DNA of 64,000 bases. Source: Candidatus Saccharimonadia bacterium. Its GTDB lineage: Bacteria; Patescibacteriota; Saccharimonadia; Saccharimonadales; JALRHH01. The notes below the pieces were generated by a model. It saw only the letters and a program-made list of their open reading frames with translations. It had not been told where the DNA came from and ran no database searches. A program made the position numbers and the translations under genes. The stretch lies in assembly GCA_023253175.1 (NCBI GenBank), contig JALRHH010000001.1:300020-364019 (forward strand), in the 5' to 3' direction. The first letter of the stretch is position 1. Every line of letters begins with the position of its first letter. Of this stretch, positions 25,609-39,742 are shown piece after piece.

Positions 25609-26757
25609 CTACAGGTCCTGCTGACCAAGCATCTCGAGGATGCCGTTCGCACGTCCGGTCCGACGTACTTCGATCACATGCCTGCCCACATCGTCAGACG
25701 ACGCGTATAGCACGATGAGATCGCCCTGGTTGAACGTCCGCGTCCCGAGTTGCAGGGGAAAGCGAACGAGGTACTGCGCCGGCCACGGAACAGTGCCGTA
25801 GGCACGCCCATACCGGTAGCGGATGCGCCGGGTGAGCAGGGCAGAGCGGAGCTGCTCGCTGAGCTGGTAAGCAGCCGCAGGATCTGCGACTGACTCCCAG
25901 AAAGCAGTGAGCTGCTCTCGGCTCGCCTTGTCACCGGCACGCTTCTGCTGCTGAACAGGGTCCGTCATACACCACGGGTCAAACCCAAGCTCGAGGTCAT
26001 CGAGAGTAGGCTTGTAGCGCAGTGCCGTAACGTACACCTGGCCGAGCAGGTAAGGCGCCCACAGCTGCTGTCCGATCGTGAAGATCTCGCTCACAACAGG
26101 AAGCGCCTCCCGGACAAGCTGCTTACGGCTTTCCACCGACAAGCTTGTCCGCCAGCTCGACTGCAGATAGACGAACACGTCAGCCTTGGGCTGCAGTGCC
26201 GACTTGGCGGTCTGGTATACGTCCTGCATGCGCTTGGCGATGCCGAGCTTCTCGATCTGCTGGAGGTCAGAGACCACCTGCAAATAGATTGCTTCAAACA
26301 CCGCCCACACACCGACATATCCCAAACCATGGATCTTCAGGTCAGGCAACGAAACCAACGATGCGTTGAGCGGCTTCGATCCATGATCAAGTTCACTCTG
26401 CAGCGTAATGGCTCGCATGGTCATGCTACCGGCCAGGTCGCACAAGGAGTCGCACTCCTGATACACCTGAGTAGGCAGCACCTCTTCGGACTCGTACAGC
26501 ACGACAACACCGTCCAGATAGCTCGTCGCCGCCTGCCAAAGCACGGCCGCCAGCCACTGGGCGTGCGTGATCGCCATCGTCGGCACCGGTGCAGTCCAGG
26601 GCGTGGTGCCCGAAGCCTGCATCTGCGCCACCACAGCATCAAACACCTGTGTCGTCTTGTACTGGTTGTCTACGGTCCTACCAAGCAGTTCAGCAACCTG
26701 AGGGTCGCCGCCTGCCACCGGACCTTGACGTCCGTACATGGGGGCAAACCCAAACAT
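25609..26757 (-). CDS. hypothetical protein (382 aa), GC-rich
   Basis: AAGGAG RBS. No motif recognised. Embedded in the Ter island. Confidence 0.55.
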   Translation of the reverse strand: MFGFAPMYGRQGPVAGGDPQVAELLGRTVDNQYKTTQVFDAVVAQMQASGTTPWTAPVPTMAITHAQWLAAVLWQAATSYLDGVVVLYESEEVLPTQVYQECDSLCDLAGSMTMRAITLQSELDHGSKPLNASLVSLPDLKIHGLGYVGVWAVFEAIYLQVVSDLQQIEKLGIAKRMQDVYQTAKSALQPKADVFVYLQSSWRTSLSVESRKQLVREALPVVSEIFTIGQQLWAPYLLGQVYVTALRYKPTLDDLELGFDPWCMTDPVQQQKRAGDKASREQLTAFWESVADPAAAYQLSEQLRSALLTRRIRYRYGRAYGTVPWPAQYLVRFPLQLGTRTFNQGDLIVLYASSDDVGRHVIEVRRTGRANGILEMLGQQDL

Positions 26758-26970
26758 CGCTCACTCCTTGGATTGGTTGGTTGAATTCTTAACGAGCTCC
26801 TCAAGACTTTGATGTTCTCTCTGTCGAAAAGCCCTATTATTGTATCATAAAAAGTATCCTATACAACTGTTTTGTTAATATAGCCAAATATTGACTTTGT
26901 ATGTTTTTATGAATATAATCGCCCCAGTCAACAAGCGTTGATGCACCTCGACAGATTGGAAGTGAATACC

Positions 26971-27738
26971 ATGGGCGTTTCGCTCGAGAAGGTTCAGCAG
27001 CAAGCTCCGCATCTGGTCAGCCTCGTCAAGGAGACGAGCGTGATCCTGGAGAAGAAGGGCCTCAACCCGGAGAGCTACAAGGCGGCCGTCGTCGGCACGC
27101 TCGACTTCAGCGGCTCCGCGTCCGGCCTCTACCAGAACGGCACCATGCAGCGCGCGGCCGACCTCGGCTTCGCCGCCGGTCTCGTCTTCGACGACGACGG
27201 CTCCGTGCCGTTCTCGCTCTTCGACAGCGGCGTGACCGACATCGGCGAGATCACCCTCGGCAACTGCCAGGGCTTCGTCGACAAGGCCATCCGCGGCCGC
27301 CGCATGGGCAGCACCGACTACGTGTCCGCGCTGAAGTGGATCGTGGACACCGCCGGCTTCGGCAAGGTCAACCTCGGCTCCGGCGGTGGTGGCTTCTTCC
27401 GGAAGGGATCGTCCCTCGAGGTCAAGGCCAAGGCCCAGTACCCGACGTACGCGCTCTTCGTCACCGACGGCGAGCCGAACGGGGGTACCGAGGGCCAGAT
27501 CCGCCAGTACCTGACGCAGATGTCCCAGCTGCCGATCTTCGTGCAGTTCGTCGGCGTCGGTCCGCACCAGTTCCAGTTCCTCCGCCAGCTCGACGAGCTC
27601 GACGGTCGACTGATCGACAACGCAGGCTTCTTCGACGCCAAGGAGGTCGGCAACGACCAGAGCAAGATGCTCGAGGCCATGCTCTCCGAGTTCCCGCAGT
27701 ACTACGCCGACGCGCGTCGTCAGGGCCTCGTGGGCTGA
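26971..27738 (+). CDS. vWA-domain protein of the TerF-C-terminal / TerY-like type
   Basis: MIDAS-like DFSGSAS, FVTDGEPNG and PIFVQFVGVG. Start trimmed to ATG 26971 (MGVSLEKVQQQAP). Confidence 0.7.
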   Translation: MGVSLEKVQQQAPHLVSLVKETSVILEKKGLNPESYKAAVVGTLDFSGSASGLYQNGTMQRAADLGFAAGLVFDDDGSVPFSLFDSGVTDIGEITLGNCQGFVDKAIRGRRMGSTDYVSALKWIVDTAGFGKVNLGSGGGGFFRKGSSLEVKAKAQYPTYALFVTDGEPNGGTEGQIRQYLTQMSQLPIFVQFVGVGPHQFQFLRQLDELDGRLIDNAGFFDAKEVGNDQSKMLEAMLSEFPQYYADARRQGLVG

Positions 27739-27864
27739 TCCTCCGGCATCCCGCCAACCACACAACTTCATACCATCTGTCGAAGGGCTGCATACTGACT
27801 TTTACGCTTCACGCGTTCAAAAAAGATCAGTATGCAGCCCAACGACACACCCTTTATGCATATC

Positions 27865-27899
27865 AAAAACACCCGCGTAAGGTTTGCGGGTGTTTTTTT
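27865..27899. terminator. bidirectional rho-independent terminator
   Basis: AAAAACACCCGC-GTAAGGTTT-GCGGGTGTTTTT between the convergent vWA and TerD-like genes. Confidence 0.6.
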
Positions 27900-28031
27900 A
27901 TTATCACAATATATCGTATCCAAAAATTGCGTAAACGGCCCACCTGGTTCCGAGAAGAAAATCTCCTCAAGGTTCCAGGTGGGCCGCTTATGCGACTAGC
28001 TATGAAATTATAGGTGCAAGCAGCAGGAGAA

Positions 28032-28667
28032 CTACTTGGTCTTGCCCTCGGGGCCGTGGTCCATGAGGACCTGGTCACCCCTGTAGCCGACGCGCTTCTC
28101 CGAGCCCGGCTTGGAGTACAGCTCCAGGTTGACCACGGACAGGTGACCGTCCTGCTCGAAGAGCACCTCGCCGAAGCAGAGGGTGTACTGGGTGCCGTTG
28201 GCGCTGGCGTCGGCGGCGCTCAGGCTGACCACCTGCGGTCCGTTCTCGATGTTGACGTAGACGCCGTACTCGCGGAACGATCCTTGGCCGTTCTCGAGGG
28301 CCGAGTACGACGACAGGGCGACCGACGCGATGTCGGGGTGCCACGTGATGTCGATCTTCTCGAGGTCTCCCGGGTTCGTGACGTCGCCGTGGTGGCGGAT
28401 CGCCCCCTCGGAGGTCTTGAGCACCTCGTCCCGGTTGGCAGCACCGACGTAGACCTGGCGACCGTCACGGTAGCGCACGAGCGCCTTGAGGTCGTAATCC
28501 TTGCCCTCGGCCGTCCAGCCGTTGCTGACCACGATGGTCGTGTCACCGGCGGACGGCTTGGTCAGGGTGACCCTGGAACCCTTGGTCAGGTTGACCCCAC
28601 CGGTGGGCGGAGCAGCCTGCTGCACGGGTGCCTGCGGAGCCGAGCTCTTCTTGTCGAACAGTCCCAT
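28032..28667 (-). CDS. divergent TerD-fold protein (211 aa)
   Basis: GVNLTKGSRVTLTK, NGWTAEGKDYDLKALV and GDVTNPGD..EKIDI resemble the TerD/CABP1 beta-sandwich. AGGAAGGA RBS. Confidence 0.55.
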   Translation of the reverse strand: MGLFDKKSSAPQAPVQQAAPPTGGVNLTKGSRVTLTKPSAGDTTIVVSNGWTAEGKDYDLKALVRYRDGRQVYVGAANRDEVLKTSEGAIRHHGDVTNPGDLEKIDITWHPDIASVALSSYSALENGQGSFREYGVYVNIENGPQVVSLSAADASANGTQYTLCFGEVLFEQDGHLSVVNLELYSKPGSEKRVGYRGDQVLMDHGPEGKTK

Positions 28668-28978
28668 GGGGAGTCCTTCCTAAAAATACTAGTCGCTGAT
28701 CCGAACCCATTTGGGGACGGTATAAAGCGATAAATTCTAAATTGTTAATGTGCGTAGTTTCGTCGTTTACGACTCTTCAGTGTGGCTTACATCCACAGAC
28801 TATGCGGGGGTATCATGATTGAAGGCTGCGAATTAACGACAGCGATCGCACATGCACCCCCTCGGGATTAATGGCACCCGTGTGGCCAGTATGTTCACGT
28901 GTCCAAGTGGACACGGAAGAACCTCTACATACATGAGGGTGATGGTGCTCGCTCCAAGGAACGAGTCATCTGGTTCAA

Positions 28979-30262
28979 TCAGCCAGCGGAAGGACCCGCG
29001 GGCAGCGCCAGGATCTGACGGGACGAGCCGACGATGCTGTTGACGACCTGCTCGTTGTAGTGAGCGCTGGAGCCATCCAGGATGAGCTTGGACTGACCCA
29101 TGGTGGCGTCCAGCTCAGCACGCTTGCGCGAACCTTCCTCGACCTCGGTGAGGATGTTCTCGGCCATCTGAACGAGCGAGTCCGTCACCGCAGTGATGGT
29201 CTCCGGCAGCAGCGTGGGCGTCTGCACCGCACGCATGATCTGACCTGCCGCCTGAGCCGAGTTGGCCGCCACCTGCTGCAGCATGTCGTTGGTCGCGCTG
29301 GAGACCGCCTCGTTGGCCTTGGCAGCCTCGAGCGACTCCGCCATCATCCGCCACTGGACGATCGCCAGCTTCATGGTGGGGATGGTGAGCCCGACAGCCT
29401 CGTTGAGCTTCTCGGCCATACCAACGTTCAGGACACGCATCATGCGCACCTGCGGCGACGTAGCCCAGGCGACCCACAGCCGGCCCTTGTACTCACCGAT
29501 CTTCACGTCCATCTGGAGGATCAGGTCGGCGTAGCGCTGCTTGAGCTCGGCGTTCTTGTTGCCGGTGGTCGGGTCATCCGGAGGGATGGTGGCCACCTGC
29601 TGCCGCGCCTGCTCGGCGATGCACTCCATGACGGCGATCGCAGAGATCAGCTGGAAGATCGCAACCTCGTTCTCGCCGTAGAGCTGATCGAGGTACGCGA
29701 TGTTCCGCATGGCCTGCATCTTGTGCTGGTTCAGGTCCTTGAGGATCTTCTCCAGCTGGGTGTCGACGGACTGCATGTCGACGAGCATCGCCTGGACGTA
29801 GTTGCGGCCCTTGCGGAACCACTTCTTGACGAAGCTGCTCTCCCACTCGTCGTACGACTTCTTGCCCTCGGGGGTGTTGAGGTCGTACCTGCCCTTGAGG
29901 GACTTCGAGGTGAGGGTGAGCTCGCGCATGATGTCCCTGACGAACCCGGTGTCGTTGGCCGGCAGCTCACGCATGAGGCGGTCGATGAGACCGTTGACCC
30001 CTTGGAGCGCCGACTGCCCGTGGTTCATGAGAACCTGGGTGTTGTTCAGCATCTCCGGCAAGAGCTTGGCGGCCTCGGCCTGGACCTTGGCGAGCTCCGA
30101 CGGTGGGATCATGTCCTTACAGACGACACCACTGCGGGACTCGGGGGTCTCGCTGACGGTCGCCAGTCCAGACGCGATGGGCTTCTCCGGCTGCGGGGCA
30201 ACCTCCAGGGGAGGGGCCTCCGTGGGGGCGCCGGGGACTTCGAACTGCAGTGGGGTGGTCAT
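28979..30262 (-). CDS. telA: TelA/KlaA toxic-anion-resistance family protein
   Basis: Long helical protein with LKGRYD, VDTQLEKILKDLNQHK, LDQLYGENE and IPTMKLAIVQWRM, which is the TelA pattern. AAGGAGG RBS. Confidence 0.85.
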   Translation of the reverse strand: MTTPLQFEVPGAPTEAPPLEVAPQPEKPIASGLATVSETPESRSGVVCKDMIPPSELAKVQAEAAKLLPEMLNNTQVLMNHGQSALQGVNGLIDRLMRELPANDTGFVRDIMRELTLTSKSLKGRYDLNTPEGKKSYDEWESSFVKKWFRKGRNYVQAMLVDMQSVDTQLEKILKDLNQHKMQAMRNIAYLDQLYGENEVAIFQLISAIAVMECIAEQARQQVATIPPDDPTTGNKNAELKQRYADLILQMDVKIGEYKGRLWVAWATSPQVRMMRVLNVGMAEKLNEAVGLTIPTMKLAIVQWRMMAESLEAAKANEAVSSATNDMLQQVAANSAQAAGQIMRAVQTPTLLPETITAVTDSLVQMAENILTEVEEGSRKRAELDATMGQSKLILDGSSAHYNEQVVNSIVGSSRQILALPAGPSAG

Positions 30263-30296
30263 CGACCAGCCTCCTTTTCCTTGGTTGGGATGTAGC

Positions 30297-30743
30297 TCAG
30301 CTGAACCGCTGCGCTGACAGAATCTTGGTGTCGACTCCGAAGTTGGTCATGCTCTGGGTGCCACTCGGCGTTGCCTTGCTCAGTACTCGAGCCGCGAAAC
30401 CATCCACGGCGTCAAAGCCCTCCTGCAAGTGCTCGTCACGACTCGGGTAACCAAAGTCGTTCTGAATGATCACGTACTGCTCGAGTACGCGTACCACCGC
30501 CTTGAGATTCTCCTGGAACTGCATGATGTCACTGTCAGAGGGCTTACCGTCTGGGCTGTTACGCACCAAAAACGGCTCGCCGTTCTGAGCGATCAACGTC
30601 AACAGGACCTTGAGCCTCGGGGCGGTGATCTGGATCCGAGTCTGTCCGATGTCGTCGAGCAGAGCACGTACTCTGCCGAGCGAATACTCGGGCTCGGTCT
30701 TCGGGACAGACTGGCTTGACTGATTGTTCTTGAACCAACCCAT
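30297..30743 (-). CDS. hypothetical protein (148 aa), immediately upstream of and co-oriented with telA
   Basis: Start trimmed to MGWFKNNQ, which follows a perfect AAGGAGG. Ends 35 nt before the telA start. Confidence 0.55.
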   Translation of the reverse strand: MGWFKNNQSSQSVPKTEPEYSLGRVRALLDDIGQTRIQITAPRLKVLLTLIAQNGEPFLVRNSPDGKPSDSDIMQFQENLKAVVRVLEQYVIIQNDFGYPSRDEHLQEGFDAVDGFAARVLSKATPSGTQSMTNFGVDTKILSAQRFS

Positions 30744-30994
30744 ATCGCTACCTCCTTTCAATCTGGTGGCAGTGTTGTAACGACGGTTTTGGGACATGAA
30801 AAGAACGAGATTGAAGTAAGAAGAATATATCATTTTTATACTTATAAGTCAATGAAGTTGCCATATGGTCAACTACTTATATTTACATACAACACTTTTC
30901 AGATATAGACTAGTGCCATCATGTCTATTTACAGAGAATAACAAAACAGGTAGAATTACTTTTGTTATCTTTCTCTCAAGAGAGTCACCACTAT

Positions 30995-31069
30995 TCCGAG
31001 GTGGCGCAGCGGTAGCGCAGTTGACTGTTAATCAATTGGTCGCGGGTTCGAATCCCGCCCTCGGAGCCA
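30995..31069 (+). tRNA. tRNA-Asn (anticodon GTT), CCA encoded
   Basis: Manual cloverleaf: acceptor TCCGAGG/CCTCGGA, D arm GCGC-AGCGGTA-GCGC, anticodon arm GTTGA-CTGTTAA-TCAAT, T arm GCGGG-TTCGAAT-CCCGC, discriminator G, then CCA. Confidence 0.95.
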
Positions 31070-31116
31070 AGCATAAGCACTTTGCGAAAGCAGAGTGTTT
31101 TTGTTTTGGTATACTG
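31045..31116 (+). repeat. array repeat R0 (authentic tRNA 3' end plus hairpin module)
   Basis: GGTTCGAATCCCGCCCTCGGAGCCAAGCATAAGCACTTTGCGAAAGCAGAGTGTTTTTGTTTTGGTATACTGCA. Confidence 0.8.
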
Positions 31117-31121
31117 CATTT

Positions 31122-31712
31122 ATGACAGAACAGTATCTTCCAGAGCTTACTGAACCAGTAAGTCTTCACGGTATTGCTGGTTTAGAAAATATTCCAGTTA
31201 GAGCAGGCATAGAGTTACGACCTCTGATGGTATCTGATGCTCAGCGAATATTAGAGATTCTAGACACTGATCCAACTATTCGTGAGCGTGTTTCTGTGGC
31301 TTCAAAAATGCATTCACCTGAAGATGTTGCCGAGCAGGTTGAGACTTACCAGAATGACGAACATCTTATCCGTTATGCAATAGTTCAGGATAATTCTCCT
31401 ATTGGACTTGTATCATTCTGGCGTGACGTCGATAATTCTTTTGATGCTCCTGATGCTCCTGACGATTATGGTTTTGGCTACTTTCTCGACCCAGCCAATC
31501 GTGGAAGTGGCATAGTAACTGATGCAGTAAAAAGTATTATGGATCGTGCTATTGAAGTAATGCACGTAAATCAATTTATTGCATATTGTGAAGACAATAA
31601 TCCTGGCAGTATCGCAGTACTAACTAAAGTCGGTTTTCATCCGACAGATACTGTTTTAGAAGAGCAGACAACTGGCTGGGTTGAGCGTAAGTATGTTCGT
31701 GAAATTCTGTAA
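31122..31712 (+). CDS. GNAT-family N-acetyltransferase (cassette 1)
   Basis: RGSGIVTDAVKSIMDRAIE (acetyl-CoA loop-like) and NPGSIAVLTKVGFHP. Start trimmed to ATG 31122 so that it lies outside the repeat. Confidence 0.75.
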   Translation: MTEQYLPELTEPVSLHGIAGLENIPVRAGIELRPLMVSDAQRILEILDTDPTIRERVSVASKMHSPEDVAEQVETYQNDEHLIRYAIVQDNSPIGLVSFWRDVDNSFDAPDAPDDYGFGYFLDPANRGSGIVTDAVKSIMDRAIEVMHVNQFIAYCEDNNPGSIAVLTKVGFHPTDTVLEEQTTGWVERKYVREIL

Positions 31713-31727
31713 ACTAGATATCATTCT

Positions 31728-31795
31728 TAGTTCGAATTTCATCCACTAATGGGAGCCAAACTAAGAAGTCCACATTTTGTGGGCTTTTTAGTTTG
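31728..31795 (+). repeat. array repeat R1a (variant outer stem)
   Basis: TAGTTCGAATTTCATCCACTAATGGGAGCCAAACTAAGAAGTCCACATTTTGTGGGCTTTTTAGTTTG. The outer stem is CAAACTAA/TTAGTTTG. Confidence 0.75.
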
Positions 31796-31898
31796 ATTCG
31801 TGGCGAGAGTTGAACCCGATAGTCCGAAGGACCGGGTTCGATAAGCAAAGTCACGCGCAGATGCTTGCATCGAGCATGGCTGCAGGTTATATAGTATA
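31796..31898. other. ORF-less cassette content A (conserved non-coding element)
   Basis: GGCGAGAGTTGAACCCGATAGTCCGAAGGACC resembles GAGCGAGACTTGAATCCGAGACCGATTCGAAGGATC at 33533-33570. Function unknown. Confidence 0.3.
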
Positions 31899-31956
31899 AT
31901 CCTGCCCTCAGAGCACTTTGTGAGAGCAGAGGTTTTTGTCTTGGTTGTGCTTGCAA
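31899..31956 (+). repeat. array repeat R1b (second close copy of the tRNA-Asn 3' end)
   Basis: TAATCCTGCCCTCAGAGCACTTTGTGAGAGCAGAGGTTTTTGTCTTGGTTGTGCTTGCAA, compared with the tRNA sequence AATCCCGCCCTCGGAGCCA..GCACTTTGCGAAAGCAGAGTG. Confidence 0.7.
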
Positions 31957-31996
31957 ATACTTTATGCTGGTCTAAAATTAAATCAAGGAGATAGCT

Positions 31997-32470
31997 ATGT
32001 TGTACGGAGAGAAGCTAGAGATTAGAGAACCATTGTTAGTAGCCCGCCTAAATGTTCTAGATAGTCCATCAGTTCAGAGAAGGGTTCGTAGGGCAACACG
32101 ACATGTACTTATGCACGTGGTTGAAAACCCTAACACACAATATGCAATAACTTGTGAACCAAGGGCGATTAGCACTAAGATTCAAACGCTTGTACTGGGA
32201 CAATATAATACTTCAGCCGAATTTGAAGCATTACCAGAAGGTAATAATTTCTTCTACAGGAAAACATCTGAAGATGGAGTACTTTTCAACCCTGAATGGA
32301 CTGGTAGCCCAGACGGGCTGTACGCCCCACATGCTATGAACTATGTTGATCAGCTTATTGCCAATGGTGCGCGTGTAATGAGTGCACTAAATATACCTAG
32401 CACGCAAGAAATACGTGCCTCAGGTCCTCAACCAAGCTACCCTAAACCAGTTGGTCCTGGGGGGGCATAG
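31997..32470 (+). CDS. hypothetical protein (157 aa, cassette 3)
   Basis: AAGGAG RBS at 31985-31990. The TAG stop is the first triplet of repeat R2. Confidence 0.5.
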   Translation: MLYGEKLEIREPLLVARLNVLDSPSVQRRVRRATRHVLMHVVENPNTQYAITCEPRAISTKIQTLVLGQYNTSAEFEALPEGNNFFYRKTSEDGVLFNPEWTGSPDGLYAPHAMNYVDQLIANGARVMSALNIPSTQEIRASGPQPSYPKPVGPGGA

Positions 32471-32550
32471 CCTGAACCTCGTCTACTAGGGAGAGCCATA
32501 AGCATTTTGACCTCTGTTTCGGCAGAGGTTTTTGTTTTGGTTATGCTTGC
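32468..32550 (+). repeat. array repeat R2
   Basis: TAGCCTGAACCTCGTCTACTAGGGAGAGCCATAAGCATTTTGACCTCTGTTTCGGCAGAGGTTTTTGTTTTGGTTATGCTTGC. Confidence 0.8.
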
Positions 32551-32585
32551 TTATTACTTAGCTTTGCAAGAAGATATAATCTCAT

Positions 32586-32945
32586 ATGCGTGAAAGAATA
32601 GAAATCATCCAAGTTGGCGAAGATAGACAAGCCCCAATTGACCAGTTTCTTGGCTATCTAGAGAATGGTTTATTCGCCACTCCCGAAAGTGGACAATGGC
32701 GTGAACACGATGAGTTGTTTCACATTCCAAGAATCAATACACTTTCAGTAGATGAGGTACAGTTTGTTATGGATGCCGCACAGCTTGCGCGTCGACTTCT
32801 ACATGAAGGCAGGAAGATTCCAGCTGTGTACGCTGCAGAAAGTATTGATCGCTTTCTGACAGACGTGGTTTCTTCGCAAATCTTTGAACGTCAGGAACTT
32901 GAAAAAAAGATGATCCAATACGGCGTGCAGGAGCGATTGTTTTAG
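32586..32945 (+). CDS. hypothetical protein (119 aa, cassette 4)
   Basis: ORF between R2 and R3. TATAAT at 32575-32580 lies only 5 nt from the ATG, so the transcript may be leaderless. Confidence 0.5.
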   Translation: MRERIEIIQVGEDRQAPIDQFLGYLENGLFATPESGQWREHDELFHIPRINTLSVDEVQFVMDAAQLARRLLHEGRKIPAVYAAESIDRFLTDVVSSQIFERQELEKKMIQYGVQERLF

Positions 32946-32981
32946 TTAATACGCTACTGCATAGGAGGTGGTTATTCTTTA

Positions 32982-33063
32982 CAGTTCGACTTGTTTCACT
33001 AATAGTGAGCCAAGCATAAGCAGTTTGCGGAAGCAGAGTGTTTTTTGTTTGGTTATGCTTGCA
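32982..33063 (+). repeat. array repeat R3
   Basis: CAGTTCGACTTGTTTCACTAATAGTGAGCCAAGCATAAGCAGTTTGCGGAAGCAGAGTGTTTTTTGTTTGGTTATGCTTGCA. Confidence 0.8.
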
Positions 33064-33107
33064 AGTCACACTAAGCTAAAAGATAATAATGGCCAAGGAG
33101 AGAACAC

Positions 33108-33464
33108 ATGCATTTTATACAGGGAGAACCAACTCAGATTACTTTTGATAATTCTGACGAGCTGCAAGCATTAGGATGGGCATGCTCAGATATGAGAAGG
33201 GCAAATCCTGACGATGAGCAAACAGTGTCAGCATATGGTATTGCCTTGCGTGGTACAGAAGTCCGACACAACCAGTCAGACAATAAGGATTTTCCGCTCG
33301 TAGGTGAAGAGGCTGATGTCGTTCTTTCAGTATTACGACAGTGGGTTGAACTAGGACCTCCAGCTAAAGAAGGCCAAGTTACTGATGCCGCAAGAGCAAA
33401 AAGCTACAAAACTGCTCAAAGTATCGTAACTCAAGTTACAGAACTTACTCAAGCAGAACGCTAG
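33108..33464 (+). CDS. hypothetical protein (118 aa, cassette 5)
   Basis: AAGGAG RBS. Stop codon is the TAG of TAGTTCGAA in R4a. Confidence 0.5.
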   Translation: MHFIQGEPTQITFDNSDELQALGWACSDMRRANPDDEQTVSAYGIALRGTEVRHNQSDNKDFPLVGEEADVVLSVLRQWVELGPPAKEGQVTDAARAKSYKTAQSIVTQVTELTQAER

Positions 33465-33530
33465 TTCGAATTTCGTCCACTAGTGGGGAGTCAAATAAAA
33501 TAACTCTCGAAAGAGGGTGTTTTTATTTGG
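33462..33530 (+). repeat. array repeat R4a (variant outer stem)
   Basis: TAGTTCGAATTTCGTCCACTAGTGGGGAGTCAAATAAAATAACTCTCGAAAGAGGGTGTTTTTATTTGG. The outer stem is CAAATAAAA/TTTTATTTG. Confidence 0.75.
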
Positions 33531-33636
33531 ATTTGAGCGAGACTTGAATCCGAGACCGATTCGAAGGATCAAGGTCACGATGTTCGGTCTGCAAAGGCTC
33601 TCACAGGAATTTATTGCAAAAAAACTTGCAGGTATA
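33531..33636. other. ORF-less cassette content B (conserved non-coding element)
   Basis: Related to element A. Contains an internal 7-bp stem, AGACCGA..TCGGTCT. Function unknown. Confidence 0.3.
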
Positions 33637-33697
33637 AACTCTCGTCCCAGCAAGATAAGCATAAGCACGCTACGAAAAGATTTCTGCTTATGCTTGC
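33637..33697 (+). repeat. array repeat R4b
   Basis: AACTCTCGTCCCAGCAAGATAAGCATAAGCACGCTACGAAAAGATTTCTGCTTATGCTTGCAA. Confidence 0.65.
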
Positions 33698-33727
33698 AAT
33701 ATAAATGTAAAGGAAGATACTAAAGCC

Positions 33728-34636
33728 ATGAAAACCATTGAATCCCGAATTCCAGCTGGTCCACCTGAGTTACCCGAGATAGCAGGCGAAACTATTGAAA
33801 ACATTCTTGAGACACATAACATTGCGGGGGTGCTCAAAGAACACGGCTGCGACCCATCCCTGGCGGTAGAAACGGCTACAAATTATGCGCAAATAGAGGT
33901 CGCGGAAAACTATTACTACCCGCTTGTAGGTAGGCTGATTCAGTATTTAGCCGATATTCCTCCGGCAATGGTGACGCACAGCGACCAAATAGGTGGCATG
34001 AAATTTCGGACGCAGGCAACATGGGGATTTTATACTATCGACAGACATCACCCCACTGGACCTAAAGAGACAAAATTGACTCTTGGAATACCAAAAGATG
34101 TAGATCCGAGCTCGGAAATGATTGAAGCGATTCAATCCATTAATAATGATAACCCTATTAGACATAGACTTCTTGGACTAGCTCCGGAGCGAAAGCGCGT
34201 GTTTGGACGTGAGACAGTGGATCAAGTTCGGCTAAAGCAGACACTTGGTAAGCTATTCACAGAACACGTAGCGGTCGTAGATGCTTATGAATTTACTCAA
34301 GATTTGGCTCTCCCTTATCAACTAGGCGCACCAAAGAGTAAGAACGAGCACATTGCTCAGTACCTCCAGCCTCATTATCCACGACATTCTTTTAAAGAGT
34401 ATTGGAGACCCGAGACGCTGGCTCAAGACCTTGAGTCAAGAGACAAAGATACAGATGGTACAACTGGCACTACACCAACAGAAAAGCACCAATGGATGCT
34501 AAATCTAAATCGTCGCGCAACTATTCAATACTTACTTCAGAGGGCAGTAGAGGTAGAGCGTTATGGTCAAATTATTGAAGCTGGCACACCCTTAAGTGAC
34601 CGAGATATTGCAGTACAACGTACAAGCCCAGCTTAA
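33728..34636 (+). CDS. hypothetical protein (302 aa, cassette 7)
   Basis: ORF following R4b. No motif recognised. Confidence 0.55.
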   Translation: MKTIESRIPAGPPELPEIAGETIENILETHNIAGVLKEHGCDPSLAVETATNYAQIEVAENYYYPLVGRLIQYLADIPPAMVTHSDQIGGMKFRTQATWGFYTIDRHHPTGPKETKLTLGIPKDVDPSSEMIEAIQSINNDNPIRHRLLGLAPERKRVFGRETVDQVRLKQTLGKLFTEHVAVVDAYEFTQDLALPYQLGAPKSKNEHIAQYLQPHYPRHSFKEYWRPETLAQDLESRDKDTDGTTGTTPTEKHQWMLNLNRRATIQYLLQRAVEVERYGQIIEAGTPLSDRDIAVQRTSPA

Positions 34637-34756
34637 CTAAGATCTTTGAATTATCAACAGATAGAAGCATGGTCTTTACTCATCCCTTGAATGATACACA
34701 AGGTGATGGAAAGCGCAATTAGATCATGGAGATAGTTACCTCAGGTGAAAAATCAA

Positions 34757-34829
34757 AGATCATGCTTGCCAGAACGCGAAGATATACGATCGTATTTCGT
34801 GAAGGCAGATTGTTTTGGTTATGCTTGCC
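34757..34829 (+). repeat. array repeat R5 (degenerate, lacks the TTCGAA segment)
   Basis: AGATCATGCTTGCCAGAACGCGAAGATATACGATCGTATTTCGTGAAGGCAGATTGTTTTGGTTATGCTTGCC. Confidence 0.5.
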
Positions 34830-34862
34830 TTATAGCATTTCAGGGCATACCATACATTTGAA

Positions 34863-35138
34863 ATGCCAGAAATACGCTTAAGTGATTTTGAAGAAGAATT
34901 AATTCCACCCATATTGCCCCCATGCATTGAAGACCAATGTCCAAATATTACTAATCCTTCGGGACGTGATGTATTAGTATGTCTTTCAGGTATCCATGTA
35001 CTCCGCCTCTTAGGCAAAACTAGTATTTTCGAGAGTACGCCATGTGGTTCTGAGGCACTTGCAACCAATGAAGACATTAAGGATGGCGAACAGCCTAGCT
35101 CGGGTAAACTGTGGCAAGATACTAAATATTATTACTAG
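34863..35138 (+). CDS. hypothetical protein (91 aa, cassette 8)
   Basis: ORF. Stop codon is the TAG of TAGTTCGAA in R6. Confidence 0.4.
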   Translation: MPEIRLSDFEEELIPPILPPCIEDQCPNITNPSGRDVLVCLSGIHVLRLLGKTSIFESTPCGSEALATNEDIKDGEQPSSGKLWQDTKYYY

Positions 35139-35205
35139 TTCGAAAGTTGTTCACCGGGTAGAGCTAAGCACAAGCACTTTGCGAGAGCAGAGTGTTTTTG
35201 TTTGT
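35136..35205 (+). repeat. array repeat R6
   Basis: TAGTTCGAAAGTTGTTCACCGGGTAGAGCTAAGCACAAGCACTTTGCGAGAGCAGAGTGTTTTTGTTTGT. Confidence 0.75.
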
Positions 35206-35236
35206 AAATCATTTCTTTGTCTGCCAGACTGGGACT

Positions 35237-35662
35237 ATGTCTAGTATTGAAGAATGTCCGTTTTGTAATTTAGGTGATCGAATTCTACTTGAAAATGAGC
35301 ATGCTAATCTATTCTTAAGTAACCCACGAAAGGTTAAGGGTCAGGTATTGATTACCCCTAAAAGACACATTGAACAATCGTGGGAAATGTCTGACGAAGA
35401 GCTTCTGGCCGTATTCAGTCTCATTAAAGTTGCCCAGCACAAATTGATTGCCGAATTTGGCGGTGGAGTAGACGTAAAGCAAAACTATCGTCCGTTCATG
35501 AAGCAAGGTCGTGTAAAAGTCGACCATACTCATTACCATGTATATCCACGAACAAGCGAGGATGAGCTCTACCAACAGGTAGAGCGGCATGAAACACCAA
35601 TGTTTATTAATCTTTCGGAAGATGAAGAAGTAAAAATCTCTGGTCTTTTCCGCCAAGATTAG
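35237..35662 (+). CDS. HIT-family (histidine triad) nucleotide hydrolase/transferase (cassette 9)
   Basis: Histidine triad VDHTHYHVYPR and an N-terminal CPFC zinc-like motif. Start trimmed to ATG 35237. Stop is the TAG of R7. Confidence 0.8.
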   Translation: MSSIEECPFCNLGDRILLENEHANLFLSNPRKVKGQVLITPKRHIEQSWEMSDEELLAVFSLIKVAQHKLIAEFGGGVDVKQNYRPFMKQGRVKVDHTHYHVYPRTSEDELYQQVERHETPMFINLSEDEEVKISGLFRQD

Positions 35663-35740
35663 TTCGAGCTTCAGACACCGCGGGAGCCATAAGCATTTTG
35701 ACCTCTGTTTATTCAAAGGTTTTATTTTGGTTATGCTTGC
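35660..35740 (+). repeat. array repeat R7
   Basis: TAGTTCGAGCTTCAGACACCGCGGGAGCCATAAGCATTTTGACCTCTGTTTATTCAAAGGTTTTATTTTGGTTATGCTTGC. Confidence 0.8.
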
Positions 35741-35787
35741 AAATCATTTTTCAACATTAGAAAATAAGTAAAAGTAAGGAGTAACTT

Positions 35788-36930
35788 ATGACCTACGAGC
35801 CAGTGGAAGGAGTTGATTATTTAATTGACCTCTATGCGATTGCCAATGTTCCTCATGAAGTTAAGCAAGATGAAATAAATCTTGCTATAAATGCCCGACT
35901 AAAGGAATACCATCCCGATAGACTCCAGGGACTTGCACCCGAATTTCGAGAAAAAGGTGAACGAATGGCCCGACTTCTCAACCGTGCAAAGACAATTCTA
36001 TTAGATCCTGAGTCTCGCTCACAATACGATGAAGTATTGTCTGAATGGGACGGTCCTCTTAGCAAAGACGGTAGACCCGTTGTGGTCATTGGGCGCCTTG
36101 CACGGGCAGAAGCTGCTAGTAAGTCTCCGGAAGAAGTAGAGGCGGGAATTGCCTCCCAAATTCCACAGATTGAAAGTATGACAGGATATTCTGCCTCTCA
36201 GCTTTCTTTTCTTGAGAAAATGGTACAACAAGCAGGCGATGACGCTCCTGATGATCTCCTCCAAGCATATGAAGCAGCCTTACTTAGTCAAGACAGGGCA
36301 CTTGCGATAGAAGAAGCCAATCGTGGTGACCTTCTTGGCATACCAAGTATGGAAGGTACTCGGTATATTGCTACGCTAGACTATGCTGAGGATAAAGCTC
36401 ACGCAATTGAGACAGCTCAAAAGGCGTATAAGGAAGAATTTATTACCGCAGCCATTGGAGGCGTCAGCACTCGACTTGCATTACTAGCAGGAGAGAGCAC
36501 ACCCGAAACTAGCACCACTCTTGTTTCCCCAGAGCCTATTGAATTACCAACCTACTTTGACGAACAAGCGGCAAAGATTAAGGAGATTGCCGAAAAGCGA
36601 CAAGTTATTGTAGAAAAACGGCTTGCAAACCTTAAGCCTACGTATCCAGAAATAGAGCTTCAGGATGAAGCGCAGCAGACACTAGCATTGCGATTTGGGT
36701 CTGTGTGGCTAGGGCTCATTGTCGATACAGAGAAACAAAGTGTAAACAGTGTTGACATACCATCAGATATTAAGCAGCTGCTGTCAGAAGAAGACTATGT
36801 TACGGTAATTCAGAACGGCTTTAACGTCATGACTATTGAACCACTCGACCAATTAGACTTTGAAGAGCTGATTAACGCAGCGGTCGAGTATCATGTTAAA
36901 AGGTACGGGCTTCTTCTAGAAGAAAATTAG
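35788..36930 (+). CDS. J-domain (DnaJ N-terminal domain) protein, 380 aa (cassette 10)
   Basis: DLYAIANVPHEVKQDEINLAINARLKEYHPDR with the HPD tripeptide. The rest is unrecognised. Stop is the TAG of R8. Confidence 0.75.
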   Translation: MTYEPVEGVDYLIDLYAIANVPHEVKQDEINLAINARLKEYHPDRLQGLAPEFREKGERMARLLNRAKTILLDPESRSQYDEVLSEWDGPLSKDGRPVVVIGRLARAEAASKSPEEVEAGIASQIPQIESMTGYSASQLSFLEKMVQQAGDDAPDDLLQAYEAALLSQDRALAIEEANRGDLLGIPSMEGTRYIATLDYAEDKAHAIETAQKAYKEEFITAAIGGVSTRLALLAGESTPETSTTLVSPEPIELPTYFDEQAAKIKEIAEKRQVIVEKRLANLKPTYPEIELQDEAQQTLALRFGSVWLGLIVDTEKQSVNSVDIPSDIKQLLSEEDYVTVIQNGFNVMTIEPLDQLDFEELINAAVEYHVKRYGLLLEEN

Positions 36931-36990
36931 TTCAGGCCTCATCCACCGGGAGAGCTATAAGCACTTTTACCTCTGTAGTGGAGGTCTTTT
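36928..36990 (+). repeat. array repeat R8 (right half truncated)
   Basis: TAGTTCAGGCCTCATCCACCGGGAGAGCTATAAGCACTTTTACCTCTGTAGTGGAGGTCTTTT. Confidence 0.65.
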
Positions 36991-37004
36991 GATACACTTA
37001 GTGA

Positions 37005-37634
37005 ATGGTACTAACTGAAAATAGCTCAAACTATATCAATAAAGAAGCTGTCGGCTACTTAGTAAATTCCGGCCTAAGCCCAGAGAACCAAAGTAAGGTA
37101 GCTGATATTCACGAAAAGCTCATTTCAAAATTTGGCAATAATATTTGGTGTCCGCCACCAGAGACACTGCATATTACGCTCATGGACTGGCTTGCGCCAC
37201 TCGTTGACTACGAAAGAGATAAAGATGTCCTGTTTGAAGAAATACGACCAACATATAGCAGATCTCTAGAGGAAGCCATCGCTGGTATCGGTAGCATTAC
37301 AGTTAAGTTTGATGTACTGCACGTAAGTCCAGGTGCTGTCTTTAGCGTCGGCCAGGACGGAGGACAACTTAACCATATTAGAGAGTCGTTTTTAAATAAA
37401 GTAGAAGAGCTTTTAGACGGTACAAAACAACCTCCAAATATAGCCCATTTTTCTGTAGCACGATTTATGGCTGAAGTTGATATTGAAGATGTCGAAGCAG
37501 TGCTTGAAGAATGTTCAATTGATATTATCCAAGAAATAAATTCATTTCGTCTCATTCGTGAGACAAAGCTTCCGATGCAACAGTATGAAGTAATTCAGGA
37601 GTATATTCTTGAAGACAAATCAACGCATTACTAG
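37005..37634 (+). CDS. 2H-phosphoesterase superfamily protein (LigT / cyclic phosphodiesterase-like) (cassette 11)
   Basis: Two HxT/S motifs at the expected spacing: LHITLM and AHFSVAR. Stop is the TAG of R9. Confidence 0.6.
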   Translation: MVLTENSSNYINKEAVGYLVNSGLSPENQSKVADIHEKLISKFGNNIWCPPPETLHITLMDWLAPLVDYERDKDVLFEEIRPTYSRSLEEAIAGIGSITVKFDVLHVSPGAVFSVGQDGGQLNHIRESFLNKVEELLDGTKQPPNIAHFSVARFMAEVDIEDVEAVLEECSIDIIQEINSFRLIRETKLPMQQYEVIQEYILEDKSTHY

Positions 37635-37700
37635 TTCGAAGCTCGTTCACTAGAGAGCCAAGCATAATCATTACTAAAGAGAAAAGTGATTTTGTTTTAC
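37632..37700 (+). repeat. array repeat R9
   Basis: TAGTTCGAAGCTCGTTCACTAGAGAGCCAAGCATAATCATTACTAAAGAGAAAAGTGATTTTGTTTTAC. Confidence 0.7.
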
Positions 37701-37731
37701 AAAATTTTAATTTATGATATTATAAATTTCT

Positions 37732-38151
37732 ATGAGTCCGGAGAGAACAGAAAGTTGGGATTGGTCACAACTTGATCCAATGACTAAAAGTGTCGTAGCG
37801 GCTTTTTCGTGGCGGATTGGCAATGACGAAGGCTGTTTATCAGACCAGGCATTTATTGGCTCAACCACAGAAGCATTCGAAAGTATGACCACTGAAGACA
37901 TTGTAAGAACCGTTCAATGTACCGGTCGAACAGGATTACGTAATATGATCATTGGTAGATTGTCAGGAGCGGACGGAGAATCAGTACGGCGAATGACTGA
38001 GCAAATCGGTGAATTAGCTGGAGGTAGTGATACTTCAAGATTATTAGCCAAGTTTGCGTGCCAACAACTAACTGGTAAATTAAACAGTAGCTATGATGCG
38101 ATTCCTACACTAAGTGTTCTTAGTGAGATGGCTACTGCTCGAATTAGTTAA
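37732..38151 (+). CDS. hypothetical protein (139 aa, cassette 12)
   Basis: ORF between R9 and R10. Confidence 0.45.
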   Translation: MSPERTESWDWSQLDPMTKSVVAAFSWRIGNDEGCLSDQAFIGSTTEAFESMTTEDIVRTVQCTGRTGLRNMIIGRLSGADGESVRRMTEQIGELAGGSDTSRLLAKFACQQLTGKLNSSYDAIPTLSVLSEMATARIS

Positions 38152-38170
38152 AGTTGCGCCTTTTTACTTT

Positions 38171-38246
38171 ACTTCGATAATCGTCCAGGATAGGGAACCA
38201 AACATAAACACTCTGCGAAAGCAGAGTGTTTATGTTTGTTATACTT
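38171..38246 (+). repeat. array repeat R10 (continuous perfect 18-bp hairpin)
   Basis: ACTTCGATAATCGTCCAGGATAGGGAACCAAACATAAACACTCTGCGAAAGCAGAGTGTTTATGTTTGTTATAC. Confidence 0.75.
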
Positions 38247-38252
38247 AAAGAC

Positions 38253-38402
38253 ATGACTAAGAAAAAATTAATTCTTTGTATGTTAATTACCCTAACAGTA
38301 ACATTATTGGCTGCTGCGGTTTTGTACAGTAAAGAGAAAAAGAAATGCGAAACAAGTGCAACTTATTTCAGTACTCATCCTAATTTCTGCCCAGCCTCCT
38401 AA
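38253..38402 (+). CDS. 49-aa membrane peptide (cassette 13), below the ORF-track size cut-off
   Basis: My translation is MTKKKLILCMLITLTVTLLAAAVLYSKEKKKCETSATYFSTHPNFCPAS. It occupies the whole R10-R11 interval. Confidence 0.35.
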   Translation: MTKKKLILCMLITLTVTLLAAAVLYSKEKKKCETSATYFSTHPNFCPAS

Positions 38403-38405
38403 TTA

Positions 38406-38488
38406 AAGTTCTAATCTCGTCCATTAGACGGAGCCATAAGCATTTTGACCTCTGTTTCGGCAGAGGTTTTTGTTTTGGTTATGCTTGC
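38406..38488 (+). repeat. array repeat R11
   Basis: AAGTTCTAATCTCGTCCATTAGACGGAGCCATAAGCATTTTGACCTCTGTTTCGGCAGAGGTTTTTGTTTTGGTTATGCTTGC. The last 58 nt are identical to R2. Confidence 0.8.
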
Positions 38489-38539
38489 ATGCTATTAATC
38501 ACCCTGCCATACTAAACTACGATATAAGAGACAAATTCC

Positions 38540-38848
38540 ATGAGTTTATATGATTTGCAGAGAGACTTAGCGGACCATGATTCACGTAATTGGCTACATG
38601 AGCAGGGCTTTGAAACAGACAAGCATAATTTTTTGCATGTTGCTAAAACCGCAGGCAAAATTGCAACTCATTTAGAAGCCATTGATGATAAGAAAGAAGA
38701 TCCTAGCGCGCAACTAGACAGCATGGTTGTTGCAGATCTTGCTATCGAGGCCATGCGCTTTGCAAATAATAGTGGACGGAGTCTACAAGAACTTATCGAA
38801 GCGCGCATGGAGGAACTTCGAGAACGAGCTGCTCAGGCACAGAGTTAG
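38540..38848 (+). CDS. hypothetical protein, possibly an all-alpha MazG-like NTP pyrophosphohydrolase fold (102 aa, cassette 14)
   Basis: The pattern FLHVAKTAGKIATHLEAIDD..VVADLAIEAMRFAN..SLQELIEARMEEL loosely resembles MazG-type helices. Stop is the TAG of R12. Confidence 0.35.
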   Translation: MSLYDLQRDLADHDSRNWLHEQGFETDKHNFLHVAKTAGKIATHLEAIDDKKEDPSAQLDSMVVADLAIEAMRFANNSGRSLQELIEARMEELRERAAQAQS

Positions 38849-38916
38849 TTCGAATTTCGTCCACTAATGGGAGTCAAGCACAAGCACCTTGCTGAAAGGC
38901 AAGGTGCTTTTTTGTT
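38846..38916 (+). repeat. array repeat R12 (terminal; also serves as a bidirectional terminator)
   Basis: TAGTTCGAATTTCGTCCACTAATGGGAGTCAAGCACAAGCACCTTGCTGAAAGGCAAGGTGCTTTTTTGTTATGA, with a perfect 9-bp stem GCACCTTGC/GCAAGGTGC. Confidence 0.75.
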
Positions 38917-39742
38917 ATGATTCTAGCTCAAGGTTGATTAATCCATGTATGTGGCTGCTCAGCTTTGCCACACGCGCAGACCTGTCTCCATGCAGCAGTT
39001 CTACTTTATTAGGTGATAGATGAGCTCGATATAATGCTGCAATAGTATCAGCTACCTGGCTACGAAATCCGTCATCGACTACTCGCTTGCCATCATCTTC
39101 AAAGGCAACTTCTGTATGGTCAGTTAAAAGAATTTTGTCATAATGATCAGCGGCGAAAGCGTAAGCTTGCTCGGCTATAGAAATGGGGAAAGATGGCGTA
39201 GCAAGATCACTAATACTGGCTAAATTGGCCTGTGCATGGTTTTCTTTTGGTAGGCGTAACATCGCATAGCCAAATCCAGATAAAACACCACGATCGGTCA
39301 ATACCACACCTATAGCTTTTTCTCGATCGGGCTGTAGTTTACGCGCCATTGCTAACGCAGACATGCCCGCTCCTTGTGTGCGAGACATCGTTCGCAAGGT
39401 GATACTTGCTTGATCATCTTTGTTATAGCCTGTCGTAAGCATATTGCGCTGAGGATATAATGCATCTGTCTGTCGAGCTATCTCACCTACAATTACAATC
39501 GGCACGGTAATATTGTCAACTATTTCAGTAACACAAACTGTTGGGTAGTCATAATGATGGGTGCCACCAAAATCATCAATATCACCGTCAACCAGTAAAT
39601 CTTTGTCTTGTATATAATCTCTGATAACAGTGGTCTTGCCGGCGGAATGGGCTCCATCAACAGCAATCATTAAAGCATGCTCTTCAGAAGCTCCGATTGG
39701 CTTTTGCGCCAGGGATAAGTTTTCTGCCTCAAAATGCAACAT
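38915..39742 (-). CDS. P-loop NTPase (AAA/NadR-kinase-like ATPase)
   Basis: Walker A DGAHSAGKTT and Walker B-like ILLTDH. Convergent with the end of the cassette array. Confidence 0.55.
   Translation of the reverse strand: MLHFEAENLSLAQKPIGASEEHALMIAVDGAHSAGKTTVIRDYIQDKDLLVDGDIDDFGGTHHYDYPTVCVTEIVDNITVPIVIVGEIARQTDALYPQRNMLTTGYNKDDQASITLRTMSRTQGAGMSALAMARKLQPDREKAIGVVLTDRGVLSGFGYAMLRLPKENHAQANLASISDLATPSFPISIAEQAYAFAADHYDKILLTDHTEVAFEDDGKRVVDDGFRSQVADTIAALYRAHLSPNKVELLHGDRSARVAKLSSHIHGLINLELES

Follow-up and report, generated by a model that had tools for sequence, protein, structure and literature searches.

A 64,000-nucleotide (nt) stretch of the genome of a Candidatus Saccharimonadia bacterium (Patescibacteriota; assembly GCA_023253175.1, contig JALRHH010000001.1, positions 300,020 to 364,019 of the forward strand), hereafter the window, contains an array of small, mostly one-gene units that starts at the 3' end of a tRNA-Asn(GTT) gene and is punctuated by a repeat derived from that tRNA end. 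We favour, with moderate confidence, the view that this is an accessory array grown by repeated site-specific integration of such units at the tRNA-Asn 3' end. Patescibacteria, which are ultra-small and depend on a host, have few recognisable mobile elements, and the means by which they acquire and retain flexible genes are poorly understood. A compact tRNA-anchored array of one-gene units would, if this view is true, represent a distinct route of gene capture in streamlined genomes, standing mechanistically between tRNA-targeted genomic islands and integrons.

The tRNA-Asn gene, the only tRNA gene of the window, is followed by 14 copies of the repeat spread over 7.9 kb, up to position 38917 (Table 1). 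An initial annotation, made from the sequence without database searches, had described this recurrence of the tRNA T-loop and acceptor end together with a hairpin, and ARAGORN, Rfam and nhmmer bear it out. From the T-loop onward the recurring sequence is GGGTTCGAATCCCGCCCTCGGAGCCA, then AGCATAAGCA, a hairpin and a T-run. Also as first described, the copies partition 12 plus-strand genes of 49-380 aa and two non-coding units, one per interval and all in a single orientation. The units measure ~0.3-1.3 kb and mostly hold one gene, and the opening TAG of the repeat doubles as the stop codon in seven of the 12 cassette genes. Pfam families were recognised for three of these (GNAT, HIT and J-domain), with a weak 2H phosphoesterase match for a fourth; the remaining genes have no family, and c5 is an ORFan, without a homologue outside its own 90% cluster. 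All cassette proteins of the window fall in clusters limited to one strain. At its distal end the array stops where r14 abuts a convergent AAA_28 gene (38915-39742, minus strand).

Twelve repeat copies are well formed, with nhmmer E values of 1e-7 to 5e-17; r7 is degenerate, and r2 and r6 form the 3' ends of the non-coding units. A profile built from the 12 copies and searched against the whole 64 kb matched within 31044-38925 and nowhere else. Diagnostic motifs of the repeat lie 10- to 20-fold above shuffle expectation and nearly all within the array: TAGTTCGAANNTCRTYCAC has 10 matches against 0.42 expected, with nine of the 10 inside the array, and GAGCCAAGCATAAGCA has nine against 0.73. All copies sit at one locus of the 64 kb, and over this stretch the repeat does not behave as a generic dispersed repeat of the REP/BIME or MITE type, nor as the rival raised at the outset, a generic terminator scattered without any tie to the tRNA. 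The sole match to the left-element motif outside the array, CAGTTTGAAGCTAATCCAC at 9394-9412 (minus strand, three mismatches) among the ATP synthase genes, was missed by the profile and is probably due to chance.

The left part of the repeat is an element of ~31 nt and fixed length, usually starting with TAG and ending exactly at GAGCCA, for which 18 distinct copies from eight loci give the consensus taGTtCGaAnnTCgTccActAnnggGAGCcA. Between TTCGAA of the T-loop and GGAGCCA it corresponds to the tRNA-Asn 3' end, with 22 of 24 positions matching and one 5-nt insertion. Shuffle p values for the Asn elements are 0.0005-0.016 against tRNA-Asn and not significant against tRNA-Lys, so that the derivation proposed for the repeats, from the 3' end of tRNA-Asn in particular, stands. 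The consensus has no internal pairing, and no dyad save the TTCGAA hexamer.

Directly after the CCA comes a hairpin and T-run of variable sequence, comprising two conserved types and several unique ones. In the hairpins the plus strand forms 51 G.U pairs and the minus strand 14, the mean minimum free energy (MFE) is -14.3 kcal/mol on the plus strand against -10.6 on the minus strand, and terminator-like sites number 19 against 6.2 +/- 2.6 in shuffles, the strongest being on the plus strand within repeats. Because of this G.U asymmetry, MFE bias and excess of terminator-like sites, the hairpins are to be read as plus-strand intrinsic terminators and not as attC-like structures of the bottom strand. 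They resemble ordinary intrinsic terminators in their G+C-rich stem, tetraloop, T-run, sense-strand-only G.U wobbles and threefold excess over shuffles; unlike ordinary terminators, however, the two conserved types are ~90% identical between unrelated genomes (the window, L028, L030 and L031, where L numbers denote related loci).

About half of the copies continue after the terminator with a box, (G)GTTATGCTTGCA, giving the series TTGCAA, 16-17 nt, a -10-like hexamer, a Shine-Dalgarno sequence and ATG. From this layout the GGTTATGCTTGCA box is probably the -35 region of the next gene's promoter; a generic promoter scan gave no enrichment. These parts do not travel together. The copies r1, r5 and r14 have a common left element before three unrelated hairpins, r3 and r13 share 58 identical nt on the right and differ on the left, and across the window the pairwise identities of the two repeat halves are not positively correlated (Spearman -0.30). 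Identical or near-identical elements also precede unrelated hairpins elsewhere (L031, 2738 versus 3807; L030, 795 versus 2134). The repeat is a mosaic of independently assorting parts, and the single approximate consensus originally drawn up for it has to be replaced accordingly. The 31-nt element is itself interrupted at two loci: a second tRNA-3'-like piece, TGGATTCGATTCCACTCACCACAA, lies between TCG and TCCAC in L032 (~1914-1970), and a ~50-nt insert separates TCCACC from GATGGGGAGCA in L032 (~937-1030) and L029 (~8677-8760).

The architecture is not peculiar to the window. The element or the tRNA-Asn layout occurs at nine further metagenome loci, including seven from the JGI collections (L026-L032) obtained by scanning metagenomes with the left-element pattern. 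The most extensive, L031 (extended by L039), starts at tRNA-Asn and contains at least 10 repeat copies over 7.6 kb, after which phosphoketolase and acetate kinase genes follow. Its cassettes encode an M23 peptidase, two TetR regulators, a CAAX protease, a P-loop kinase, a DUF2164 protein and unknowns, none of them common with the window, and include two two-gene units, one of which has a minus-strand gene. L026-L030 and L032 have 2-4 copies each beside accessory genes (Pfam SNase, Macro, DUF3800 and methyltransferases; PLD-like and HIT-like neighbours were read by eye only). Phosphoketolase-acetate kinase and type IV pilin genes are carried by related loci. Together with L036, there are three independent arrays anchored at tRNA-Asn (window, L031/L039 and L036) with different genes, so that the anchoring claimed for the window extends beyond it.

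A parallel array occupies a tRNA-Lys(CTT) gene in L038 (1391-5353). Its repeats, at 2811, 3882 and 5261, form a separate family in which the left part ends GG(A/C)CCTCCA like the tRNA-Lys 3' end and the right part is a hairpin terminator set between the inverted-repeat arms TTTTAACAGAT and ATCTGTTAAAA; this repeat matches tRNA-Lys (shuffle p <= 0.02) and not tRNA-Asn. The tRNA-Lys gene is itself followed by CTAAGCATAAGTAC, a hairpin and TTTTGTTATGATT, a succession resembling the type-1 right part of the window.

Between species, array gene content is entirely different save for one family, that of the J-domain protein c8 (160 representatives at E < 1e-10), which is the only cassette family common to other arrays, namely L036 at tRNA-Asn and L038 at tRNA-Lys. 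L036 has its c8 homologue (~42-43% identity) in first place behind the tRNA, as against eighth in the window, with the same TTTGGTTATGCTTGCAAATCA box ahead of it; in L035 a homologue stands in an ordinary context and keeps the GCTTATGCTTGCA box upstream. These varied positions are suggestive of mobility and are no proof of it.

The cassettes also look foreign in composition. The window is chromosomal, with an F-type ATP synthase operon and genes for an AddA-like helicase-nuclease, SmpB, VKOR, Crp and two-component proteins, and the genome has 47.5% GC. Third-position GC content (GC3) is 25-38% in the window cassettes versus 43-51% in core genes. Directly 5' of tRNA-Asn lies a 7.8-kb island at 60-64% GC (window 23000-30850), which holds a tellurite-resistance-type cluster (TelA has a GC3 of 90%) and unknown genes with relatives beside TerD, vWA-TerF and PRTase genes elsewhere; it was probably acquired from a high-GC donor. 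DNA of foreign composition thus lies on both sides of tRNA-Asn, the GC-rich island on one and the low-GC3 cassettes on the other.

Integration at tRNA 3' ends is the simplest account of these observations, because each repeat imitates its own anchor tRNA, Asn or Lys, and because the arrays start at that tRNA with unrelated gene sets. We infer recombination as the mechanism, a crossover near GAGCCA and the existence of a recombinase enzyme. Directly behind its gene each unit keeps the 31-nt sequence derived from the tRNA end. That derivative would be a recombinase recognition half-site and not a decayed scar, a functional role suggested to us by the conservation of one derived consensus in unrelated genomes. 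The terminator after the CCA would insulate the cassette gene and the box would then start the promoter of the next, which together would make each gene a self-contained transcription unit. The recombinase, which is not at the locus, would act in trans, encoded at another place in the genome or brought by a visiting element, or may have been lost, in which case the array would be a static orphan comparable to clusters of attC sites without an integrase (CALINs). This reading agrees with the ORFan or typically accessory nature of the cassettes across arrays (GNAT, HIT, J-domain, M23 peptidase, TetR, CAAX protease, Macro, SNase and methyltransferases), with the partial and inverted tRNA-Asn copies that the non-coding units bring into the arrays, and with the nested tRNA-3'-like piece in the L032 element. 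Site-specific integration at a tRNA had been proposed from the window sequence, and a repeat that imitates its own tRNA in the tRNA-Lys array is what such integration predicts. No recombinase was found in about ten related loci.

Several observations weigh against integration. Pfam detected no recombinase domain among ~70 open reading frames (ORFs) of the window, which agrees with the initial annotation in finding no integrase in 64 kb, and there is none in the precomputed Pfam annotation of L001, L004 or the matching 644-kb ENA contig. The flanks of L029, L031/L039, L036 and L038 likewise yielded no recombinase domain of the tyrosine, serine, DDE or HUH kind. Searches of IMG/VR viral contigs with patterns of the 31-nt element, the tRNA end and the non-coding units gave nothing or chance matches within coding sequences, and phage and plasmid collections matched the tRNA itself and no array. 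Cassette order is identical in all same-species contigs (at least 15, including a second strain, L025), which goes part of the way to an outcome named in advance as counting against cassette movement; between species the content differs. One study is the source of all contigs whose flanking or cassette proteins are identical to those of the window, and the second strain differs in genes beyond TelA. The sole close-strain pair that differs in content, L029 and L032 (99.8% identical over 2.44 kb), diverges at the ribosome-binding site of a gene, away from any repeat, and at these two loci the 5.8 kb upstream of the elements contain no tRNA. The c8 positions could alternatively reflect an old vertical history, given that the homologues are all ~40% identical to one another. 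Finally, a sharp CCA boundary would be equally expected if a conserved element merely preceded unrelated terminators.

No occupied and empty pair of sites came to light. A scan of genome contigs for the TelA flank found no relative, and the closest TelA homologues (58-60% identity; L014 and L015) have neither tRNA-Asn nor an array beside them, so that no empty site is definable there. An identical tRNA-Asn 3' end was found among GTDB genomes in five Patescibacteria/Saccharibacteria metagenome-assembled genomes (MAGs), of which L023 and L024 have no array and L020-L022 end ~50 nt past the tRNA; a tblastx search for empty-site synteny returned nothing.

A wider proposal, which we put forward tentatively as a possibility, is that Patescibacteria of the Saccharibacteria type have a gene-capture platform analogous to the integron, in which the tRNA 3' end is the fixed attachment site, the cassettes carry a 31-nt mimic of that site with their own terminator and promoter, and the recombinase is encoded elsewhere and may belong to a non-obvious family. 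The Asn and Lys systems would then be parallel, mutually specific platforms, and the structured non-coding units could belong to the machinery. Should a cognate recombinase exist, its short 31-nt site and tRNA target are directly testable and might provide a useful tool for site-specific integration.

Amongst the alternatives, exchange of cassettes by homologous recombination without a dedicated recombinase survives best, and we consider it doubtful though far from negligible. Natural competence is known in Saccharibacteria. The repeat would be an intergenic module (3'-untranslated-region element, terminator and promoter) offering short homology arms by which naturally competent Patescibacteria would swap in or out DNA taken up from relatives through RecA-type recombination, with gene conversion homogenising the modules. 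Such a process would accord with the lack of a recombinase in the examined loci, with a module that is a three-part mosaic and not two halves, and with the position of the L029/L032 breakpoint away from the repeat; genome-specific variants of the 31-nt element resemble concerted evolution, and the 58 nt of 100% identity between r3 and r13 resemble a recent conversion tract. It leaves unexplained, however, why the modules imitate their own anchor tRNA in both the Asn and the Lys system and why the array starts at a tRNA gene. Furthermore, the usable homology is very short, consisting of 31-nt elements with often unrelated hairpins, and the CCA boundary is precise in every informative pair.

Islands anchored at tRNA genes that accumulate partial tRNAs have been published as the tycheposon islands of Prochlorococcus, also in streamlined genomes (bioRxiv 10.1101/2020.12.28.424599), and the first impression that the architecture of the window is undescribed was therefore too strong. 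Our literature search turned up no account of it in Patescibacteria. The array is like tycheposon islands and tandem accretions of integrase-less CIME-type elements in starting at a specific tRNA 3' end, in having copies of that end between units, in the matching of repeat to tRNA (Asn versus Lys), in the accessory cargo of a streamlined genome and in content that varies between genomes. It is unlike them in that its units are ~0.3-1.3 kb instead of multi-kb elements, in containing no integrase genes or fragments, in a repeat that is a conserved derived 31-mer with a 5-nt insertion in place of an exact partial tRNA, and in the regular succession of stop codon, element, terminator and, in part, promoter box within each unit. 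We regard the feature as a tRNA-anchored accretion of integrated units, whose single-gene regularity and conserved 31-nt element lie beyond that published description.

The same work supplies the model for a second alternative, that larger elements (prophages, integrative islands or tycheposon-like elements) inserted at tRNA-Asn one after another, pushed the earlier ones outward and decayed until each was reduced to one gene and an att scar; the published islands have partial tRNAs and degenerate remnants (10.1101/2020.12.28.424599). Partial, inverted and interrupted tRNA-Asn copies would be natural products of this history, as would the high-GC island on the other side of tRNA-Asn. An L031 cassette also has a homologue in an island elsewhere that includes an integrase and an Xis-like HTH_17 gene. 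We nevertheless judge the alternative unlikely, for decay predicts irregular spacing, mixed orientation, gene fragments and integrase pseudogenes, and we observe 12 intact genes, one per unit and on one strand, often ending in the TAG of the element. Nor has the 31-nt element diverged at random: at least eight loci conserve one derived consensus that includes the identical 5-nt insertion.

The island in question (L040, 38-1509; L041, 45-1516) encodes a 53%-identical homologue of a 221-aa L031 cassette protein, and comprises a 423-aa tyrosine integrase, the excisionase-like HTH_17 gene at the contig end, MmeI-type restriction-modification genes and an adjoining predicted tRNA-Arg(TCT). It contains no Asn-type repeat copy, and its integrase cannot be linked to the array as the enzyme responsible.

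A third alternative takes the 31-nt element to be an RNA-level signal of the 3' untranslated region that would mark accessory transcripts of this class, such as a protein binding site shared with the T-loop and CCA end of tRNA-Asn, a processing site or a stability element, and regards clustering at the tRNA as secondary. On the coding strand the element is indeed always preceded by a stop codon and followed by a plus-strand terminator; its TAG start serves as the stop in over half of the cassette genes, it is conserved in sequence with no pairing of its own, and the adjoining hairpins have the G.U asymmetry of RNA. Yet the other ~50 genes of the window lack it, a tRNA-like minihelix would have no 5' partner, and the tRNA-Lys system would need a second, independent signal that imitates its neighbour tRNA by coincidence. 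This explanation appears quite improbable.

The term integron-like, applied to the array at first sight, holds in part as an analogy and is not supported as a statement of family membership. Integron cassettes have one promoterless ORF each and are co-oriented, and an attC site is an imperfect palindrome with R'' (RYYYAAC) and R' (GTTRRRY) cores and extrahelical bases that folds on the bottom strand. The array of the window shares with integrons and CALINs its co-oriented single-ORF cassettes, the imperfect palindrome or repeat 3' of each ORF, the ORFans and small accessory genes such as GNATs, a repeat homogeneous within its host as in sedentary chromosomal integrons, and a platform fixed at one chromosomal site; its GTTATGC motif is loosely like the R' core. 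It differs in its anchor, a tRNA gene, and in having no IntI (none among window ORFs or in precomputed Pfam of L001 and L004), attI or Pc. Its repeat is without R''/L''-L'/R' boxes: no conserved RYYYAAC/GTTRRRY pairs occur at the hairpin bases, the GTTATGC box is missing from about half of the copies, and the conserved part is a non-palindromic tRNA-derived 31-mer. The hairpins favour folding of the top strand or RNA, as plus-strand terminators carried by the units themselves, and the cassettes appear to have their own promoters. A canonical integrase-less integron with attC repeats is thus highly improbable, the failure of the attC and IntI criteria having effectively refuted it. An Xer/dif module does not fit either. 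The pdif sites of Acinetobacter plasmid modules are 28-bp XerC/XerD sites that alternate in orientation and have two 11-bp arms placed with dyad symmetry on either side of a 6-bp spacer; those modules are similar to the present units in being small, with one to few genes bounded by short recombination sites and the recombinase not in the module, whereas the copies here are chromosomal, all direct, and consist of an asymmetric 31-nt tRNA mimic without the required dyad.

The two non-coding units of the window, ncA (31796-31908) and ncB (33530-33653), share homology with one another and with two units of L031 (273-397 and 3878-3999). Type A corresponds to L031 unit D and type B to unit C, and their order is swapped between the two arrays. 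A unit is ~125 nt long and includes part of the tRNA T-arm region in inverted copy, a small hairpin with covariation, AAGGTCGCGGGTTCG as a direct copy, a ~60-nt hairpin at the position of the T-loop, and a tRNA 3' end that is nearly exact (ATCCCGCCCCAGGAGCCA in L031). RNAalifold, with four sequences only, gives compensatory double changes in 10 of 30 pairs; the units fold equally well on both strands, so that an RNA and a DNA structure are inseparable. Rfam, at the gathering threshold and at E values up to 10, recognised the tRNA and no family for the non-coding units. Directly after the smpB stop codon (window 20296-20348) there is a 33-nt stretch, CTTGCAGGATATTTATTCCGAGAAAGCTCGCAG, that agrees with helix 2 of the non-coding unit in 28 of 32 positions (nhmmer E = 0.013). 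No tmRNA gene was detected in the window by ARAGORN or Rfam, though smpB is present.

Table 1. Features of the tRNA-Asn-anchored array, with positions in the window (r, repeat copy; c, cassette gene; nc, non-coding unit).
Feature	Position	Strand	Evidence
tRNA-Asn (GTT), array anchor; last 26 nt (from 31044, start of r0) are the prototype of the 31-nt element	30995..31069	+	ARAGORN; Rfam 73.3 bits
r0 right part: AGCATAAGCA, hairpin, T-run, GGTATACTGCA; type-1 terminator directly after tRNA	31070..31118	+	
c1, GNAT acetyltransferase, 196 aa	31122..31712	+	Pfam Acetyltransf_3, E = 7e-19
r1: 31-nt tRNA-3'-like element (31728-31758), then unique hairpin terminator	31728..31795	+	
ncA (31796-31908), tRNA-Asn-derived segments and conserved helices; ends in r2	31796..31955	+	
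r2 (end of ncA): true-tRNA-like 3' end AATCCTGCCCTCAGAGCA, terminator, GGTTGTGCTTGCA	within 31796..31955, start ~31880	+	
c2, 157 aa, no family match; stop is TAG of r3	31997..32470	+	
r3: 31-nt element, type-2 terminator, GGTTATGCTTGC box; right 58 nt identical to r13	32468..32551	+	
c3, 119 aa, no family match	32586..32945	+	
r4: 31-nt element, type-1 terminator, GGTTATGCTTGCA; TTGCAA, 17 nt, GATAAT, promoter-like	32982..33063	+	
c4, 118 aa; stop is TAG of r5	33108..33464	+	
r5: 32-nt element, then unique hairpin terminator	33462..33529	+	
ncB (33530-33653), ends in r6 (start ~33625) with AAGCATAAGCA and GCTTATGCTTGCA	33530..33698	+	
c5, 302 aa, ORFan	33728..34636	+	
r7 (start ~34760): degenerate; hairpin remnant and GGTTATGCTTGCC only, no 31-nt element	34760..34829	+	
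c6, 91 aa; stop is TAG of r8	34863..35138	+	
r8: 31-nt element, type-1 terminator	35136..35205	+	
c7, HIT-family protein, 141 aa; stop is TAG of r9	35237..35662	+	Pfam HIT, E = 2.9e-9
r9: 30-nt element, type-2 terminator, GGTTATGCTTGCAAATCA box (box also precedes c8 homologue in L036)	35660..35741	+	
c8, J-domain protein, 380 aa	35788..36930	+	Pfam
r10: 30-nt element, then hairpin terminator	36928..36995	+	
c9, 209 aa, weak match to 2H phosphoesterase (2_5_RNA_ligase2)	37005..37634	+	E = 4e-4, below Pfam cut-off
r11: 29-nt element, weak hairpin, T-run	37632..37701	+	
c10, 139 aa, no family match	37732..38151	+	
r12: 31-nt element, then perfect 18-bp hairpin terminator	38170..38245	+	
c11, 49 aa, small hydrophobic protein	38253..38402	+	read from sequence
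r13: 32-nt element, type-2 terminator, GGTTATGCTTGCA	38405..38489	+	
c12, 102 aa, no family match; stop is TAG of r14	38540..38848	+	
r14: last 31-nt element and 12-bp hairpin terminator	38846..38917	+	

Several same-species assemblies break within repeats, which is explicable by the 58-nt identity of r3 and r13. Contigs likewise end in or beside repeats or the tRNA in L002, L006, L010, L012, L013, L020-L022, L028, L031/L039 and L032, examples being ends 27-50 nt past the tRNA, one within r13 and the end of an 864-kb contig. These contig ends are consistent with repeat-induced assembly breaks, and MAGs probably under-represent arrays of this kind. The 31-nt consensus could serve as a search key for flexible-gene regions in MAGs of the candidate phyla radiation (CPR; Patescibacteria), where assemblies tend to break.

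Two minus-strand ORFs adjoining repeat-bearing cassettes resemble, by eye only, the N-terminus of an IS4-family transposase in L026 (315-671) and an IS3-type OrfA in L030 (287-544). One cassette gene of L031 (1894-2268) has a GC content of 59%, a GC3 of 88% and its own G+C-rich terminator, among neighbouring cassettes with a GC3 of 34-45%, and by this composition it looks like a one-gene acquisition from a high-GC organism.

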